A DNA stretch of 64,000 nucleotides from Promethearchaeota archaeon (GCA_016840085.1 JAEOTA010000055.1:1-64000), one strand, 5' to 3'; counted from the first letter of the stretch, positions 71 to 13,911 are shown. Notes: a model not told the origin generated them from the sequence alone. A program made the numbers and translations.

Positions 71-1378
71 ATGCATGTAAATAATATATCTCCATATTCG
101 TTTAAAACATCTGGAGTTAAATCACTTCTTTCCAACCATTATATGCTCGCATTTTTTAAAAAGTTTTGTGATGTAACTGTTTCTCGCACTTGGAAGTTCA
201 AAAGAGCTAAAAACGCAAGATATGAGGATAAGGACTTTTTGAAGGTGTTCTTCTTTTCTGAAATTATCGGTAGATCAATTCATGATACCAGTGAAATGCT
301 TAACGAGCACCTATTAAAAAGTAGAAAAGGAAGACGCAAATCTTTCACTGACGGAAGGAAAAGACGTATAATTCCACATCAAACAGAAGTAAACAAGTAC
401 CTTCGCAAATTTGGATTGAATAAGGCACGTGAGATTCTGCGGACTTGTTTGGATTCTCAATTAACGGAAGCTTTGAGGCTTAGACTTATCTCAAAAAAAG
501 TCAATGTGATCATCGACTTCACAGAACATCCTTATTATGGACAACGTGAGGATAAAATGATAAAGGGCACTAATCGACAGAAAGGGACGAAGAAAATGCG
601 GCATTATCTCGGGTTCTCGATTTTGTCGAAAAATGTTCATCTTTATGCCGGATTGGAACACGTGGCTAAAGGACAATCTAAAATACCCATAATCCTTGAA
701 TTCCTTGATCATGTACTCGATCTCGGATTTGAGTTGAACTACGTATTAATGGATCGGGAATTTTATAGAGCAATACTCTTACATGAAATAAAGGCCAAGA
801 ATGGGAATGTTTTAATTCCAACCAAGCAATATAAAAAAGTTCGGGGAATAATCGAAGCCTACATAAAGGGAAAAGGAAATCGGGTGCGAAGATACACGTT
901 TTCCAGCGCCACTGAAGCAAAGCACCGATTTTATCAGCATGTTTACCTGATAATAAAAGCGAAACGCGGATTCACTCTTCAGGGCGTGAAACGAGACTAT
1001 CGAATGGGGAAAATATCTTTAGACGATGCCCGGAAGCGGGTATTTGCCATCATGACTACCGAGAAACCCAAAGGAAAGACAAGTTCTTGGGCGTCCCGCA
1101 CTTCATTATTTTATCGACGACGATGGTTGATCGAAACGGGATTCAGCGACTTAAATCGGATTAATCGTAGATGGAAATCCAATCACGATAACTTGCGATA
1201 TTTTGACATGCTGGCAAGACTACTGCTTTATAATTCGTGGAAAATGAACAAAAAATTGATCAAAAATGCCGGAACTCAAGAAGGAAAAACAAGAAAATGG
1301 ACGCTAGCTCAAAATCAAGATTATTTGAAGCAGCTATTTCTAACATCGGGGAAAAAATCACGGGAGGTGATTGGTTAA
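71..1378 (+). mobile_element. IS4-superfamily (ISH3-like) DDE transposase
   Basis: IIDFTEHPYYG (D1), VLMDREFY (D2), YRRRWLIETGF (Y-2-R-3-E signature); terminal repeats not identified. Confidence 0.85.
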
Positions 1379-3993: not shown

Positions 3994-4350
3994 CTATTTC
4001 CCATCCAATAATTCAAGAATTTCTTCTTTTAGTCTATCTATTTCTTTTTCCCGCTGAGAAATAGGCTGTTCCTTATCTTTTTTTCCTGATGATGAAGCAT
4101 TAGTATTGAACAAGCCCTGAAGTATAAGTAGGGTTAATAATTCATTACTCTGAAAATTATATCCAGTAGCCTTTCCACTTAGGAATCTAAGTCCATTAGA
4201 GCCAAGACCGTGTTTTCTCAGCTTAAAAAACATAAAACCCGCAATAAATAAGACAATAATAATTATCCCAAATAGAGGATTTCGCTGATAAAACAATACG
4301 AATGCGACAATCAATATGAAATAACAAAACAATTTTGCCATATTATTCAC
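3994..4350 (-). CDS. Small membrane protein (2 TM, charged C-terminal helix)
   Basis: Two hydrophobic segments; abuts or overlaps both neighbours. Confidence 0.7.
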   Translation of the reverse strand: MNNMAKLFCYFILIVAFVLFYQRNPLFGIIIIVLFIAGFMFFKLRKHGLGSNGLRFLSGKATGYNFQSNELLTLLILQGLFNTNASSSGKKDKEQPISQREKEIDRLKEEILELLDGK

Positions 4351-5098
4351 CTGAAAATTTATCTATATCAGGAGCATTAACTTCCATATATTCACCATAT
4401 AATACCCCTACTCTTTTTTCTTCCCTATTTTTCCTTACATTTTTATAAATTGTATACCATAGCAGACAGATATATTTCAACACCACAAACACGACTCCGA
4501 TCAAGAAGTAATATATAAACTCAAGTGAGAAATCAATCGTAAATAAATCTACCAGTATCCATACCAATCCAAATGAAGAACATAATAAAATAACTTGAAA
4601 AAATGATTGTGAAGGATTTTTTTGAAACGTTACTGCTATATTTTTAAGATCTACTGTGGATGGTCTCACTCCTAATAATACCGACACACAGATTATCCCG
4701 CTCACTATCCTATAAAGCGGTTTTGCTGACATATCAAGGGCTATTTCAAGCAAAAAGAAAAATACAATTACCCCTACCAGTAAGGGAGCAATTCCAATTA
4801 ATAATGATTGAATAAATGAGACTTTTTGTGGTCTCTCTAGCGCAACTGATCCATGTGGATCTACCCTTCCAGTCATTTTATTTCTGTAATTTACCTCCAC
4901 TCTTTTGACTGGCACACCGGTAATAAGACATAATGTAGCATGCGCAGCTTCATGAATAGCAACTCCAATAAATCCAAGGACACTAAACGCGGTTTTATAT
5001 TTACCCTTGGTCTGATGATATAGCAATTCAAGGCCATACCCTACTACGAATGCTATTGGCAACCAAAAAAAGGTGAATACGAGGACTTTTTCAAACAT
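4343..5098 (-). CDS. M50/M50B-like intramembrane metalloprotease
   Basis: HEAAH within a TM helix, IAP motif, PSxxD, multiple TM segments. Confidence 0.7.
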   Translation of the reverse strand: MFEKVLVFTFFWLPIAFVVGYGLELLYHQTKGKYKTAFSVLGFIGVAIHEAAHATLCLITGVPVKRVEVNYRNKMTGRVDPHGSVALERPQKVSFIQSLLIGIAPLLVGVIVFFFLLEIALDMSAKPLYRIVSGIICVSVLLGVRPSTVDLKNIAVTFQKNPSQSFFQVILLCSSFGLVWILVDLFTIDFSLEFIYYFLIGVVFVVLKYICLLWYTIYKNVRKNREEKRVGVLYGEYMEVNAPDIDKFSGE

Positions 5099-5119: not shown

Positions 5120-5134
5120 AATATAAAGGAAAAA
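5120..5134 (-). promoter_or_regulatory. T-rich promoter motif
   Basis: Minus strand TTTTTCCTTTATATT, ~22 nt before the ATG at 5098. Confidence 0.6.
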
Positions 5135-5235: not shown

Positions 5236-5438
5236 GGGAACTATTGAGTATACTGGAAATAGATTACCACTGTTTAAACTGGTCGAGGATTCTCCCGCAA
5301 CCAGATCATGGTGGGGTGATGCACGAAACGAAAAAATTGATACATTTTGAAAATTCAGTTTTCGTGAAAGTATGGTAGAACGCTTTTCCTCATAGATCCT
5401 GATCCAGAGGATAATATTTAAAAGGCAAATAGGTTCCC
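5236..5438 (+). ncRNA. Candidate structured 5' leader RNA of the atypical TFB gene
   Basis: Closing stem GGGAACTATT 5236-5245 / AATAGGTTCCC 5428-5438 plus several internal stems. Confidence 0.4.
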
Positions 5439-5467
5439 ATATATTTCTTAGGAAACTATACAAAATA

Positions 5468-6697
5468 GTGACCAAGGTTATGGCTTCATATAAAACACAA
5501 GAATTTGAGACCGGATTAGTAGGGCTTTCATCCCTAAAATGTGATATGTGTGGTTCGGAAGATATTGTTGAAGATATGGGCTCCTATATCTGTAGAGATT
5601 GTGGGATCGTGCTTGAGATCCGAAAATTGCAGTATGATAGGCCCTATAATACTGATATCATTCATCATTCTCCGCATGTAGGGGCTACCCAGGTAGGAAC
5701 CATTCGGGAGCGGCTTAGTTCTAAGCATTCCGTACAGCTCCAACGAATAAATAAAAAACAATTGGAACAGTCTAACTATGAGAATGTGAAACGAAAGATT
5801 GGGAAAAAGATTTCCGATCTGTTTACGAAACTTGAATTACATGACTCTGGAGCGTCCTTAAAGCAGTATATTTATACACAGTGTCTAAGAGTATATAATA
5901 GTTTTAGACCAGGAACGAAGTATAGAAGTGTTGAGAAGTTAGTTCCAGTGGTGATGTACTATTGTTTAAAGCTTAGAAGTATTGCGCGACCAGAGACCGA
6001 TTTTATAGATACTAGTGAAATAACCAAAAAGGAATTTAATCATTTTAAGATCCAAGTAAAGCATTTTCTTCCCAAGTATAATGAGTATAATCGGCAGATG
6101 GTTATTCTTCAAAAAATTAGTTATATCCAAGCCGAATTTAATTTGGATAGGGCATTTAATCTATTCACTAGGAAAGTCCTATATAAACTGTGGGGACTTA
6201 TCAAAAATACAAAAGATGATGTCGTAGCAGGGCTCTGTGCATCGATTTCGGCTCTATGCGCCTATCAAGATATATTAAATGTGAATTCCATTTGCAATCT
6301 GCTGGGTATCAGGATGAGTACCATTCAAAGCCAAGTGAAAAAGAATTTCTTTACTCGATTCAGAGTCGAGGGATTTGTAAGTCTGGTAAAATCTTCCGAC
6401 TTATTGGTAAAAATTATGGAAAAGTTAGGAATACTGGAAGGAGCAGAAGAACCTTGTGATATTGTGGAGATAAAGCTGGGACACGCAAAACGTATATTTA
6501 ACAATAATGATTCAATTGAATACTATCTATTTGCGATAAGAGATGAGGATAATAACGTAATGCTTGCCAAGTTAGACGTGTTTAAGCCATATCAGAGATT
6601 TGAGACGGTTGATAGTGTTGAAGTCAGTAACTTGCCACAATTCAATATGGTTTTCAGAACGTATTCAAAAGGCAAAGGTCCACCCTTTAAAAGTTGA
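5468..6697 (+). CDS. tfb: Atypical transcription factor IIB (TFB) paralog
   Basis: TFIIB Zn ribbon CDMC...CRDCGIVL, two cyclin-like repeats, divergent C-terminal HTH, extra ~90-aa tail; start GTG 5468 or ATG 5480. Confidence 0.75.
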   Translation: MTKVMASYKTQEFETGLVGLSSLKCDMCGSEDIVEDMGSYICRDCGIVLEIRKLQYDRPYNTDIIHHSPHVGATQVGTIRERLSSKHSVQLQRINKKQLEQSNYENVKRKIGKKISDLFTKLELHDSGASLKQYIYTQCLRVYNSFRPGTKYRSVEKLVPVVMYYCLKLRSIARPETDFIDTSEITKKEFNHFKIQVKHFLPKYNEYNRQMVILQKISYIQAEFNLDRAFNLFTRKVLYKLWGLIKNTKDDVVAGLCASISALCAYQDILNVNSICNLLGIRMSTIQSQVKKNFFTRFRVEGFVSLVKSSDLLVKIMEKLGILEGAEEPCDIVEIKLGHAKRIFNNNDSIEYYLFAIRDEDNNVMLAKLDVFKPYQRFETVDSVEVSNLPQFNMVFRTYSKGKGPPFKS

Positions 6698-6786: not shown

Positions 6787-6804
6787 TTTTTTTATTTAAA
6801 TATA
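6787..6804 (+). promoter_or_regulatory. T-rich promoter motif
   Basis: TTTTTTTATTTAAATATA, ~46 nt before the ATG at 6850. Confidence 0.65.
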
Positions 6805-6849: not shown

Positions 6850-9780
6850 ATGAACCTAAAAAAGTCGATTTTTACTATCATTATAGTATTATTATTTGTA
6901 CGTTCTATTATCTGTATTGCACCCCAGAAGAACAATTATTCCGAAGCTATGCAATATAACGATGTGAACAGCTCTCTTAAGACCTCCTCTACGACAAACG
7001 GGGAAATCATTCAGGAGGTCTTCTCTGCTAAAAACAGTCAATTCCAAAGCGAAGGATATTATACTCAAATGTTTGATTCTTCACTTCAAGCGACATATTA
7101 TGGGCTATATGTTTTAGATACGATTGGGAAATTAGGGGATATTAACACGACTGAAGTTCTCACTCATATCATGTCGTTTTATGATCCTGATTCAAAGTTG
7201 TTTATGGATAACTATTCCTATAGATATCTTGATACCGACTTTTCGCAAGTATATTATCCGTTAAGCACGCAATTAGAAGTGAATTGTTATGCGGTACTTT
7301 CATTAGACTTACTGGACTCTCTTAATTTGATCGATACTTCAGAGATGATCTCGTATCTATGGGAGTGTTATAATACTGATACTTCGGGTTTCATCGGGCA
7401 AAAATATGACACAAGTTTGGAAGAAGGATTTAAAATTTCGACCATGGATAATACTTATTTTGCGGTGTATGCCTTGGATCTTCTAATGGATGATTGGTCT
7501 CAACATGGTACTGAAAGAGATGAAATTGTCCAATTTATAAATGATCTACAGATATCCCAAGGATCAGGGTGGATGGTAGGGGGGTTTCTTAATGATATGA
7601 ATTCCTCATTAGATAGTATTAATCCCTTATTTGAGCCAAATCTCCTCAGCTCTTATTACTGCATTAAGACTTTGAAGCTATTTGGCATGGAAGATAGTAT
7701 TAACAAGCCTAACTTTCACTCCTTTTTAGATACATTATATGATTCTACCAACTATTATTTTAGAATATCGCAAATGGATTATGGAATTGAATATGCTAAT
7801 ATTGTCGCTACTGCACTTGGATTGGAGCTTTCCGATATTACTTCGTATCCAAATATCAACCGAGAGAATGTGATTACATTTTTATTAAATAATCGCAATT
7901 CGTGGGGAATCTGGGATTCATCGACCTTACTTGATCATCATGAGCTAATTGATACTTTTCAAATTGTGAGAGTGTTAAATAATACCGAAGAAATTTCACG
8001 ATTAAATGAAGGAGATAAATCTCAAATAAGCGGTGCGGTATCTAAATATTATAGCTACAATGGATTTGCGCCCTTATCAGAAGATTATATGACCATGGAT
8101 TTAATACATAGCATCGTATCTTCTTATAAATTATATGATAAGCTCTCAGATCTGGATATCAGCCAATTATATAGTGATATTACCTCTTCCTATAATCCCT
8201 TCGGTTCATGTCGATTTGTAGAATATATTACAAAAGGGAAGTCATTTACTGGCCTTCGCTCACGACCGTATGAATTCTATACTACAGGATACAAGAATTA
8301 TGTGGATGAGATTAACGTGCTTATTTCCCATAAAGCTACCTTTCATGCACTTACATCTTTACGCGAGATATTTAAACTTGATGATTTTTCCCTAAGCTAT
8401 GATCTTCATGACTTATTGGACGATATCATTGCTTCCCAGTTTCTAAATGACTCTTATTATAACAGTTTTGGGGGATTTACCTATTGGGAGCCCTATAATC
8501 CAATATTTTCTGAGTTCTTAAGCAAGAATGTATATTTCTTTTATACCTATTATGCCGTTCGAAACATGGAACTTTTAGGGAACTATCTCGGGTTAGGAGA
8601 TCTTACTCAACTATCCTTTGATATAGATGCCCTTTATTGTTTTATTGATAGAAAAATAGTAGAATCTGCTACTTATGTATATCTTGATCCTGGATATACT
8701 TCAAATGTAGAAGATATCTTGGAACAGACCTATTATATGATTTACATCCTTAAAGCGTTGGACTTATATAATAAGAATACTCAGAAGACCAAGAATTATG
8801 TGTTAGATCATCTGGATTATTCTAATATTAAAAATATCTATTATTCCTATAAAATCTCAGAGATTTTGGACCTAAACATAGAATTTAATTCGATACCTAT
8901 CCAAAATTTAATGAAAGCGATATATTCAGAGGATTTATACGAATTTTATCTAACTTCAGCCCATCAGGTAATTGATCATGATATTTTATATTGGATATGC
9001 GATTTGGCAAAAAATAGTGAAGTGATTATTAATATAGAATATCCAGAAGTTGTCTCATTAGGAGAATTTATACCCTTTACTGCGAATGTTCAAAATCTAA
9101 TCATCGATGATTTTGGCTCCTACATTACCCTAAAATGCATACATGAGAAATTAGGCACAATTTTGTTTGATAAGCTAGAAGGTAATGAATTTACCAAAGA
9201 TGTGTATGTCCCTATAGAAAAGGATTACTATCCTGAAATCGCTTTAAGGTTAGAGGCATATGAGGGATTTAGAAAACTTAGTGAACAAAATATTACCGTA
9301 TATACCGACTATAGCATAACTCATCACCTGACAACCGAGGTGATAAATAGTTCTGTATATCTTGAAATAAATGGAACGTATAAAACGAGTCTAAAAGAGT
9401 ATAACACGTCATACGGACAGGCATATTCGCTTGTCTATGGAGAATCGTTTCTGGAAGAAAAATTCTTCTATCGCCACGATTTCGAAAATTATAGTTTATT
9501 TTCCATGAGCTACGATGTTAATTTTAAATTCCGATATACGTTTGAAATTTATCTTTCAGACGGGATAAATAACGAATGGATATGTCTTGGCAATTATACC
9601 TTTTATAAAGGAGAAATCAAACCCGATGATGAGGTGCCTGACGATCCTTTTGATGGACATAATCCAAATTATGAGGATGAACTTTTACAAACGATTCCTG
9701 TTATCACTATATTAACCTTAATCCCTGGAAGTGTTATAGTACTTACTACGGTGAGAACTAAAAAATTAAAGAAACGATAG
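6850..9780 (+). CDS. Large secreted/membrane-anchored protein with prenyltransferase/squalene-cyclase-like alpha-alpha toroid repeats
   Basis: N-terminal hydrophobic segment, repeated GGF...TY(Y/F)AV..L.LL units, C-terminal TM and basic tail. Confidence 0.65.
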   Translation: MNLKKSIFTIIIVLLFVRSIICIAPQKNNYSEAMQYNDVNSSLKTSSTTNGEIIQEVFSAKNSQFQSEGYYTQMFDSSLQATYYGLYVLDTIGKLGDINTTEVLTHIMSFYDPDSKLFMDNYSYRYLDTDFSQVYYPLSTQLEVNCYAVLSLDLLDSLNLIDTSEMISYLWECYNTDTSGFIGQKYDTSLEEGFKISTMDNTYFAVYALDLLMDDWSQHGTERDEIVQFINDLQISQGSGWMVGGFLNDMNSSLDSINPLFEPNLLSSYYCIKTLKLFGMEDSINKPNFHSFLDTLYDSTNYYFRISQMDYGIEYANIVATALGLELSDITSYPNINRENVITFLLNNRNSWGIWDSSTLLDHHELIDTFQIVRVLNNTEEISRLNEGDKSQISGAVSKYYSYNGFAPLSEDYMTMDLIHSIVSSYKLYDKLSDLDISQLYSDITSSYNPFGSCRFVEYITKGKSFTGLRSRPYEFYTTGYKNYVDEINVLISHKATFHALTSLREIFKLDDFSLSYDLHDLLDDIIASQFLNDSYYNSFGGFTYWEPYNPIFSEFLSKNVYFFYTYYAVRNMELLGNYLGLGDLTQLSFDIDALYCFIDRKIVESATYVYLDPGYTSNVEDILEQTYYMIYILKALDLYNKNTQKTKNYVLDHLDYSNIKNIYYSYKISEILDLNIEFNSIPIQNLMKAIYSEDLYEFYLTSAHQVIDHDILYWICDLAKNSEVIINIEYPEVVSLGEFIPFTANVQNLIIDDFGSYITLKCIHEKLGTILFDKLEGNEFTKDVYVPIEKDYYPEIALRLEAYEGFRKLSEQNITVYTDYSITHHLTTEVINSSVYLEINGTYKTSLKEYNTSYGQAYSLVYGESFLEEKFFYRHDFENYSLFSMSYDVNFKFRYTFEIYLSDGINNEWICLGNYTFYKGEIKPDDEVPDDPFDGHNPNYEDELLQTIPVITILTLIPGSVIVLTTVRTKKLKKR

Positions 9781-9824: not shown

Positions 9825-10436
9825 ATGAGTTTCGAATCACAATTCTTGGAGATCAGTAACCAGAACGGAAGGTATATTAAGAAAATACTTAGCCTATTGC
9901 GGCAGATGTTAGACGTATTAAGCCGATTTAAGAATGACTATACGAAGAAATTTAATATTACCAAATTTGCGGAATATTTACACATTAGCTCAACAGATAT
10001 GAATGAAATAATCTCTCTTATTATAGAATATCAAGATATATTTCACACAATCTTTAAAGACTATAAACTGCTCAAAAAAAGGGAAGGCACTCAACACTAT
10101 TTGGTGGTTCAAAAACTAAAAAAACAGCCAATTATTATTAGCTTTACACCCTTCCAATTAGAAGTGTTAAATGATATCTATTATTGGTTTAAAGTGGTCC
10201 ACAAAGGGAAGGGATTTAATATAGAACAATCCAACCCTCTTGCTCAAAAGCTACACACCTTACTCGAAACCCATCCTGTTCTTTTTATTATAGCCCAAAA
10301 TAGATTAGTCTATCTTTCTGATATAGGGCAGAAAATCGGAGATATGCTTATTTCGTATAATAAAAGTAGTAAGCAGGTCACTGAGTTTATCATCGAGAAT
10401 TATATAATTAAAGTGGAGAAGAATGGGGGAACTTGA
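9825..10436 (+). CDS. Hypothetical protein, possible winged-helix domains
   Basis: FNITKFAEYLHIS HTH-like segment; overlaps the hef start. Confidence 0.6.
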   Translation: MSFESQFLEISNQNGRYIKKILSLLRQMLDVLSRFKNDYTKKFNITKFAEYLHISSTDMNEIISLIIEYQDIFHTIFKDYKLLKKREGTQHYLVVQKLKKQPIIISFTPFQLEVLNDIYYWFKVVHKGKGFNIEQSNPLAQKLHTLLETHPVLFIIAQNRLVYLSDIGQKIGDMLISYNKSSKQVTEFIIENYIIKVEKNGGT

Positions 10437-13079: not shown

Positions 13080-13289
13080 GTCTAGGACTCTTTTCCTCGC
13101 CTTAGCAGATCTTCTAATAGCATCAGCGAATTCTTGTCGCAGAATTGTCTGATATACGGGATGGGTTTCGTTAAAAGGAATTTCTTCATTTCCGGTATAA
13201 ATAAATGCAGTATGAGGTAATCCAGTAAGCTGAGAAAAAGAGATCATGGCTTTCTTTAGATCGATAACTTTTTCTTCTGAAATCTCCAA
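13071..13289 (-). CDS. Small hypothetical protein
   Basis: 72-aa ORF, frame open up to ~13334; own promoter motif at 13382-13395. Confidence 0.55.
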   Translation of the reverse strand: MEISEEKVIDLKKAMISFSQLTGLPHTAFIYTGNEEIPFNETHPVYQTILRQEFADAIRRSAKARKRVLDLL

Positions 13290-13381
13290 TTTAACATTAT
13301 TTTGGTGTCTTTTTTCTAATATTTTGGAACTCAGTTATTTTCACTCTATTCTGATTATTTATAGGAAAGAGTAGTCAAATA

Positions 13382-13395
13382 CATTTAAAGAAAAA
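13382..13395 (-). promoter_or_regulatory. T-rich promoter motif
   Basis: Minus strand TTTTTCTTTAAATG. Confidence 0.55.
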
Positions 13396-13434
13396 GAAAT
13401 AATAATAATAAAAATATTCTAACGAGAAATAAGA

Positions 13435-13731
13435 CTATTTCTGTTCTAATTTTTCTAATAGTTTTTTTAAATGAAGCTTCATAAAATATCGCTCACTTTC
13501 CGCAAATTCACACTTCTGCTTTTCAGATAAATTTCTACAATTGAGCAATATCGCATGGATCTTTTCGAGGGTAATAATATTTTCATCGCAAATCTGTTCA
13601 ATATTTTCCTTGGGGATTATTTCAGTCTCAGAATTATCGAGTCCTTGATTTATAATTCTTTTCTTAGATAAAGATTCTCTTATTTGTCGAGTTTGATTAT
13701 CTTCAGTTTTAGAATTCATAATACGGCTCAA
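13435..13731 (-). CDS. Small hypothetical helical protein
   Basis: 98-aa ORF; promoter motif at 13813-13827. Confidence 0.55.
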   Translation of the reverse strand: MSRIMNSKTEDNQTRQIRESLSKKRIINQGLDNSETEIIPKENIEQICDENIITLEKIHAILLNCRNLSEKQKCEFAESERYFMKLHLKKLLEKLEQK

Positions 13732-13812
13732 TTATTTCTCTCCAATAATCCTTTTGTAAAAATTAATTCCTTAGAATCCATACTATATCTAATTGTAATG
13801 ATTGGTAAATTT

Positions 13813-13827
13813 CTTATAAAGAAAAAA
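13813..13827 (-). promoter_or_regulatory. T-rich promoter motif
   Basis: Minus strand TTTTTTCTTTATAAG. Confidence 0.65.
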
Positions 13828-13911
13828 TTTCAGTCTTAATCAATTTTTGTAAATGCTAGGCTAGGCATTTGGGATAATAAAAAAGATAAAAAAAAAGAAT
13901 TTAATATGATT

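Follow-up and report, generated by a model that had tools for sequence, protein, structure and literature searches.

Alternative TFBs are known in archaea, but a clear TFB paralog with a BRE-type specificity of its own has so far been hard to pin down. The closest known cases to the protein described here are TFB3 of the Sulfolobales and TFB2 of Sulfolobus. TFB3 is truncated, being devoid of the B-reader and the second repeat, and works together with TFB1 (PMC6101594, PMC6101591). The BRE and TATA elements used by TFB2 resemble those of TFB1, with an altered spacing (bioRxiv 10.64898/2026.09.06.749720). As a general rule, the helix-turn-helix (HTH) of the second repeat enters the major groove that lies upstream of TATA (PMC4581349).

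The window analyzed here is a stretch of 64,000 nucleotides from a Promethearchaeota archaeon. It encodes a full-length TFB-type protein of 405 residues, which we call TFBL (ORF 5480-6697, + strand). No account of this family or of its gene cluster was found in the literature. An earlier note on this DNA had the gene begin at 5468. The GTG at this position lies inside the Shine-Dalgarno-like TAGTGA; the MATYKT N-terminus of the homologs and the conserved Shine-Dalgarno-like ATAGTGATCAAA over the GTG place the start at ATG 5480 instead. The gene and the parts of its product are as follows:

5466..5473, + strand: Shine-Dalgarno-like TAGTGACC, which includes GTG 5468; the ATAGTGATCAAA block is invariant in alignment A4
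5480..6697, + strand: TFBL coding sequence with stop codon, a divergent TFB paralog; homologs start with MATYKT
5534..5614, + strand: TFIIB-type Zn ribbon, residues 19-45, with C21/C24/C38/C41 (PF08271, invariant Cys, alignment with the canonical TFB ribbon)
5615..5767, + strand: B-reader/B-linker equivalent, residues 46-96, LQYDRPYN...TQVGT.RER..S (conservation; R-x-[FY] and RER..SP.S aligned)
5768..6079, + strand: predicted cyclin repeat 1, residues 97-200 (AF2 pLDDT 80-92, fold matches)
6080..6355, + strand: predicted cyclin repeat 2, residues 201-292, with the HTH at its end (AF2, fold matches, profile-profile alignment)
6281..6343, + strand: HTH with recognition helix G276-I-R-M-S-T-I-Q-S-Q-V-K-K288 (translation, alignment to GVTEVTLRSRYKE, conservation)
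6356..6694, + strand: family-specific C-terminal domain, residues 293-405, with the end K-G-P-P-F-K-S (alignments A1 and A2, low-confidence AF2 model)

The earlier note had described a Zn ribbon and cyclin repeats, with both cyclin folds kept in contrast to the truncated TFB3, and this was borne out. Pfam matched PF08271 to the Zn ribbon (E 3e-5) with 23.9 bits, a score under the curated cut-off of 29 bits, and the cysteines C21, C24, C38 and C41 were invariant in 48 homologs. NCBIfam returned a weak TFIIB match (E 8.7e-5), and Pfam gave no match of the TFIIB repeat PF00382 in TFBL. When the profile of the 48-sequence TFBL family was compared with 11 canonical TFBs from the window's genome, the two were aligned with a probability of 98% and an E-value of 1.9e-13. 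The alignment paired residues 18-288 with residues 11-286 of 295 and thus ran from the Zn ribbon through the HTH, both repeats included.

In the AlphaFold model, the confident core comprises residues 97-321 (pLDDT 80-92). This predicted core superimposed on human TFIIB with Z 15.8 and an rmsd of 3.7 A over 194 residues, covering both repeats, on P. woesei TFB with Z 15.7, and on Brf1 with Z 14.8, whereas true cyclins gave a good superposition for one repeat only. The best Foldseek matches of the model were all TFIIB from pre-initiation complexes; Rrn7 (Z 9.3) and Orc6 (8s0d_F, Z 11.4; 3m03_A, Z 8.0) were found as well. The two-cyclin-repeat arrangement of TFIIB is present in TFBL by profile alignment and fold, not by Pfam. 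Besides TFBL, the window's genome has a single TBP gene (G000:C53:10283-10804) and about 11 TFB genes of the ordinary kind, and the profile alignment, the model and the fold matches therefore mark TFBL as an extra, very divergent TFB paralog.

The stretch of 50 residues linking ribbon and core (LQYDRPYNEDIIQY..G.TQIGT.RER..SP.S) is the most conserved part of the family, and is predicted to be disordered, with low pLDDT, when the protein is folded alone. Its R-x-[FY] and RER..SP.S elements align with the B-reader/linker of canonical TFB, and the rest is divergent. The divergence that the earlier note had ascribed to the B-reader is therefore real, yet this linker block is retained. Sequence and predicted fold support TFBL as a complete alternative TFB, and it may bind TBP-DNA and recruit RNA polymerase.

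An extra tail beyond the HTH had also been noted, and TFBL indeed continues for about 113 residues past the HTH, compared with about 9 in canonical TFB. This domain is conserved to the terminal K-[DG]-P-P (alignments A1 and A2). AF2 modeled it with low confidence (pLDDT 59) as one helix and three strands, the ESM Atlas contained no look-alike of it, and on the basis of this model and the Atlas search it has no detectable similarity to anything.

Among 301 sampled genomes from the phylum, strong TFBL matches occurred in one GTDB family only (55/68 genomes), and a wider set for this family contained TFBL in 98 of 135 genomes. The family consists of Loki-type Asgard archaea, and TFBL is not Asgard-wide, so that the "Asgard TFB clade" of the earlier note was too broad a frame. 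The one example outside the main family is a distant homolog of 423 aa in genome G288 of the neighboring family f2, which matched the family profile with 97.6% probability. Genomes have between 0 and 5 copies each, and fragments and pseudogenes occur. The window's genome itself has a second, orphan paralog (G000:C9:66268-67488, L039:10001-11233) with 42% identity, whose helix reads GMSTIHAQVKK, with H in place of the first Q; no cluster gene lies within 10 kb of it, and its neighbors include a regulator of the TrmB type along with a CofC-like gene. A viral origin of TFBL was considered and dropped, as IMG/VR yielded a Zn-ribbon match only and no TFBL.

JGI labels certain family members "TFIIIB Brf1/TFIIB". 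This name, the fold matches to Rrn7 and (in the core only) to Brf1, and the C-terminal extension, a feature also of Brf1, could indicate a general Brf- or Rrn7-like specialized factor that serves a gene class unrelated to the cluster, with incidental synteny. We regard this as very improbable. The C-terminal domain resembles nothing detectable, its model being of low confidence. Moreover, TFBL occurs in one GTDB family only and is missing from 37 of the 135 genomes there, varies in copy number to the point of leaving pseudogenes, and co-occurs with the accessory cluster.

The HTH of TFBL is GIRMSTIQSQVKK, and the window's genome has GVTEVTLRSRYKE at the same place in its own canonical TFBs. 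The earlier note had quoted the HTH at 6281-6340 exactly, as the translation VNSICNLLGIRMSTIQSQVK confirms, and its canonical comparator agrees with the ..GVTEVTLRSRYKE of these TFBs. Aligned, the recognition helices read G-V-T-E-V-T-L-R-S-R-Y-K-E in the genome's TFBs and G-I-R-M-S-T-I-Q-S-Q-V-K-K in TFBL. The canonical BRE-contact residues (V/T...R-x-R) are not kept; their place is taken by S280, Q283 and Q285. S280 and Q283 would correspond to V283 and R286 of human TFIIB, which reportedly contact bases (Tsai and Sigler 2000).

Among 253 TFBL homologs, the pattern MS[TS][IV]QxQ was present in 184, the chief variation was H or N in place of the first Q, and the canonical R-x-R was absent from every member. 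These alignments support the view that the recognition-helix residues were replaced and then held nearly invariant across the family. The specificity positions of the HTH appear, from this pattern, to be under strong purifying selection.

TFBL lies in a conserved cluster, in which its immediate neighbors are:

4343..5098, - strand: TM251, a putative M50/site-2-protease-like membrane metalloprotease, divergent from TFBL (invariant motifs, M50 matches)
6850..9780, + strand: surface protein of 976 aa, a prenyltransferase toroid with C-terminal anchor, downstream of TFBL (PF00432 E 3.6e-13, synteny)

In the order that recurs among 20 loci, one strand carries a RadA paralog and an operon of a 125-aa Zn protein, a RadB/KaiC-like protein, a 118-aa two-TM protein and TM251. 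The opposite strand carries TFBL, the 976-aa toroid surface protein, orf203-Hef-DUF1922, Hel308 and an HhH-TM/VirB4-like operon. The TFBL-containing gene order is kept in genera g1, g3, g4 and g6. G323, a closed genome, has its cluster split up, with only TM251, TFBL and the surface protein still adjoining. The distant G288 homolog likewise has proteins of the toroid, TM251-like and VirB4-like types encoded close by. Synteny thus supports integral membership of TFBL in the cluster, both across four genera and for a distant neighboring family.

Of 135 genomes, 94 had both TFBL and a member of the surface-protein family, 4 and 10 had one of the two, and 27 had neither. As related genomes are not independent samples and the MAGs are incomplete, this figure is indicative only and overstates the link. 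In genome G195, TFBL (G195:C64:44143-45358, in locus L094) is a pseudogene with a frameshift and stops, one of them falling on the codon for the helix's first Q. Next to it, Hef retains only residues 193-423, Hel308 is a 27-aa remnant, and the HhH-TM and VirB4-like genes are truncated, indicating joint decay.

TM251 has the two features of M50 site-2 proteases, an HExxH in a TM helix and a downstream Asp ligand motif: H49-E50-x-x-H53 and P146-S147-x-x-D150 (PSxxD) are invariant. Peptidase_M50 (PF02163) matched 9 of 18 TM251 members, with a best E-value of 5.7e-6, and for the window's own TM251 Pfam gave DUF4271 only. Against the PDB, RseP-type S2Ps were the only near-matches (E 0.18-0.5).

Some further observations concern the neighbors. 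The surface-toroid family is an expanded one: a genome can carry as many as 4 copies, and some of the open frames span 1,400-2,000 aa. Many of its copies sit alone, remote from TFBL, and stand-alone paralogs exist in TFBL-less genomes. The RadA of the cluster is a paralog: another RadA-type gene (G000:C78:253537-254433) is 43-45% identical to it. The match to this other gene contains one in-frame stop in every genome examined, including the orthologs in G144, G138, G183, G213 and G159, which could mean that the gene is split or carries an insertion, or that two ORFs lie side by side. On its RadA side the cluster is bordered by a DDE transposase (PF01609, window 71-1378, + strand).

With a RadA paralog, a RadB/KaiC-like protein, Hef, Hel308 and a VirB4-like protein as neighbors, TFBL might be thought of as an Orc6-like DNA-binding scaffold with a TFIIB fold, a partner of the recombination and DNA-handling proteins and not an initiation factor; Orc6 is indeed among its fold matches. 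We consider this improbable. TFIIB, TFB and Brf1 all score above Orc6, with both repeats in TFIIB geometry, and the Zn ribbon and B-reader/linker align with canonical TFB. In addition, TFBL has its tightest conserved linkage with the protease and surface-protein genes rather than with those for repair enzymes.

The T-rich sites of the earlier note are present. In the vicinity of TFBL, the promoters are:

5122..5134, - strand: TTTTTCCTTTATA, a T-run promoter for the protease operon that diverges from TFBL; orthologous sites at 14/15 loci
5407..5423, + strand: probable TFBL promoter, a purine-rich BRE-like GAGGATAATA followed by the TATA box TTTAAAA; conserved across genera
6787..6800, + strand: TTTTTTTATTTAAA, a T-run promoter for the surface-protein gene downstream; orthologous sites at 9/13 loci

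Sites of the C-type, defined as T5+C1-2TTTWWA, were found nine times in the non-coding DNA of the first 32.4 kb, compared with 0.54 expected from the non-coding site density of the window's genome (P = 6e-9), and this region holds 6 of the 32 gene-oriented C-type sites of the genome. A survey of 28 loci located the motif ahead of genes that come first in their transcription units: the RadA paralog (9/9), the 125-aa protein (10/11), TM251 (14/15), the surface protein (9/13), orf203 (10/11), HhH-TM (6/6) and Hel308 (5/10). Upstream of the internal genes for the KaiC/RadB-like protein, the 118-aa two-TM protein, Hef and orf279, the same survey detected none, and the internal gene DUF1922 had it in 1 of 11 cases.

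Alignment of 74 sites gave the consensus T6-C-TTTAAATA (T6CTTTAAATA). Positions that the search pattern did not force were conserved too, namely a T and an A lengthening the TATA box to 8 bp and a purine at +13. An A at +29 from the start of the TATA box was present in 82% of the sites, at the spacing expected of an archaeal start site. The 8-bp TATA box and this conserved A indicate a genuine core promoter, with the T-run in its BRE position.

This element is contrary to the local norm of the genome. Purine runs before TTTAWA are gene-oriented genome-wide (114 sense vs 68 antisense) and pyrimidine runs are not (112 sense vs 147 antisense). With spacers of about 80% A+T, no BRE consensus emerged from all TTTWWA sites or from TTTAWA at -27..-35, and only the strand-asymmetry counts are informative. 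Nor could a canonical promoter be derived from tRNA genes, of which aragorn found only 7.

The gene for TFBL does not follow the pattern of its neighbors: the T-run motif was upstream of it in 0 of 22 cases. Its promoter instead has the form GAGGAAAAGG-TTTAAAA, about 60 nt before the ATG, and is kept in this form across genera. The spacer 5236-5438 upstream of TFBL lies largely 5' of the probable promoter, which makes a TFBL mRNA leader unlikely. In genus relatives this spacer contains the conserved palindromes TGACAAAAATGTCA and GAGAAGAAGCCTTCTTTTC, degenerate in the window (alignment A4), which look like operator sites. Elsewhere in the cluster, two T-run promoter copies on the - strand (13384-13395 and 13815-13827) face the region 13080-13900, in which no ORF of at least 100 aa was found; these copies may serve small ORFs or RNAs.

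The reading we favor has TFBL as an alternative TFB, functional and specific to its lineage. It would dock on RNA polymerase through its Zn ribbon and B-reader/linker and bind TBP-DNA through its two cyclin repeats, its recognition helix having shifted from T-E-V-T-L-R-x-R-Y to R-M-S-T-I-Q-x-Q-V and a C-terminal domain having been gained. An ordinary purine-rich BRE/TATA promoter would drive its transcription. Once made or released, TFBL would displace the housekeeping TFB at promoters with T6-C in the BRE position, an element that may be seen as the usual purine run flipped to the template strand. It would then turn on the unit-first genes of the accessory cluster, with the S2P-like protease/RadB-like operon, the RadA paralog, the surface toroid protein, Hef, Hel308 and the VirB4-like membrane operon as targets. 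We infer both the readout of the T-run by the TFBL HTH and the activation of the cluster. As an explanation, this is the best single one, and we hold it tentatively, as coming close to an even chance.

The earlier note had itself named what would speak against such a role, namely persistence of the motif in genomes without this TFB, and one such genome was found. Genome G267 of genus g4 is 99% complete, and its TM251 and surface-protein genes stand back to back with a 205-nt gap in the TFBL slot. Profile, full-length and C-terminal queries found TFBL neither in the slot nor in the whole assembly, and a second TM251 copy likewise has no TFBL neighbor. Three unannotated ORFs, two near the empty slot and one by the second protease copy, were checked, and none is TFB-like. 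The cluster of G267 is apparently intact and keeps T-run sites ahead of both TM251 copies, the surface protein, HhH-TM and Hel308. Identity between the G267 proteins and those of the other loci is only about 38-40%, which argues against a fresh deletion common to the sampled relatives. As G267 is a single MAG, it weakens the model and does not overturn it. In most TFBL-negative genomes the cluster is interrupted by contig ends.

Co-occurrence of the TFBL clade with the motif, a check suggested by the earlier note, gave a mixed picture. Counts of TTTTTCTTTAWATA against the reversed control were 33/9, 22/10, 25/11 and 26/14 in TFBL-positive genomes of genus g1, and 18/7 in G147 and 6/6 in G083, which also have TFBL. 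TFBL-negative genomes gave 14/8, 11/3, 10/6, 6/9 and 3/1. The counts are thus higher in genus g1 and G147, with overlap between the two groups and with phylogeny as a confounder. Outside the cluster, the window's genome has about 26 gene-oriented T5+C-TATA sites, compared with roughly 5 by chance, and a wider T-run regulon is possible. One outside site lies ahead of the gene upstream of a VirB4-like fragment (C20:30613).

The main rival to T-run readout draws on these data. It holds that TFBL is a cluster-linked regulator derived from a TFB, which acts in trans by co-activation, competition or repression in the manner of TFB3 and has an HTH that leaves the T-run unread. This A-tract with one C:G pair would then work through DNA shape, through the housekeeping TFB/TBP or through another binder from the cluster, such as the unannotated 203-aa protein encoded at 9825-10436. 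Retention of the motif in G267, motif counts that do not separate genomes with and without TFBL, and the many sites outside the cluster are all consistent with this, and TFB3 provides the precedent of a TFB paralog that activates without a BRE readout of its own (PMC6101594, PMC6101591). On the other hand, the HTH of TFBL is complete, with apparently strong purifying selection at the specificity positions, and the T-run is located precisely at the binding place of a TFB HTH. No T-run site was present in 16 kb of the G288 cluster, which encodes a TFBL-like protein with a different helix (T-A-S-T-V-Y-S-Y-L-K), and TFBL retains a putative B-reader/linker and the second repeat, which TFB3 is missing. 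Taken together, we judge this rival rather unlikely, if clearly more credible than the scaffold or the Brf-like factor.

For the sigma-like role that the earlier note had proposed, this means that the support is partial. The complete TFB architecture, the fixed helix, the synteny, the T-run at the BRE position, the purine-rich promoter of TFBL itself and the joint decay in G195 speak for it; G267, which keeps cluster and motif without TFBL, and the overlapping motif counts speak against it. A sigma-like role of TFBL for the cluster is plausible.

An alternative TFB reading the T-run might also be controlled after its synthesis, and the protease neighbor hints at regulated release. TFBL, TM251 and the two-TM protein could form an archaeal counterpart of the bacterial switch made of sigma factor, anti-sigma factor and site-2 protease. 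In such a switch, the C-terminal domain with its K-D/G-P-P end would be membrane-held or processed, and proteolysis would free TFBL to act on inverted-BRE T6C-TATA promoters and to start a programme of surface remodelling and DNA uptake/recombination. This extension, drawn by analogy, is speculative, and we think it unlikely.

TFBL, the T6C-TTTAAATA promoters with their TSS-like A at +29, and the purine-rich promoter of TFBL constitute a directly testable natural pairing in the archaeal lineage nearest to eukaryotes. If the T-run reading is correct, this pairing would show retargeting of the TFIIB fold, as in the divergence of TFIIB, Brf and Rrn7. TFBL also offers a starting point for studying how a DNA-handling and membrane cluster, so far undescribed, is regulated.

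Compared with known systems, TFBL shares with canonical TFB/TFIIB (PDB 1AIS, 1D3U, 5IY6) the Zn ribbon, a putative B-reader/linker, two cyclin repeats oriented to each other in the same way and an HTH at the BRE-binding position. It differs in its low identity (about 12-17%), the lack of a PF00382 match, the exchanged recognition helix, the added domain of about 113 aa, and a patchy accessory distribution beside about 11 canonical TFBs. To the S2P-released sigma factors of bacteria (RseP/sigma-E, SpoIVFB/pro-sigma-K) the relation is one of analogy only: the gene of the factor lies by an M50-like protease and a small two-TM protein, and at the sequence level the factor has no homology to sigma. 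With TFB3 of the Sulfolobales, TFBL has in common that a TFB paralog is tied to a gene set of the DNA-damage/DNA-exchange type, but TFBL is complete and has its own HTH. The TFB2 of Sulfolobus acidocaldarius and the haloarchaeal TFB paralogs are, like TFBL, full-length and sigma-like, with a dedicated regulon. Unlike TFB2, TFBL has putative targets that are pyrimidine-rich at the BRE position, a gene located beside them, and an additional domain.
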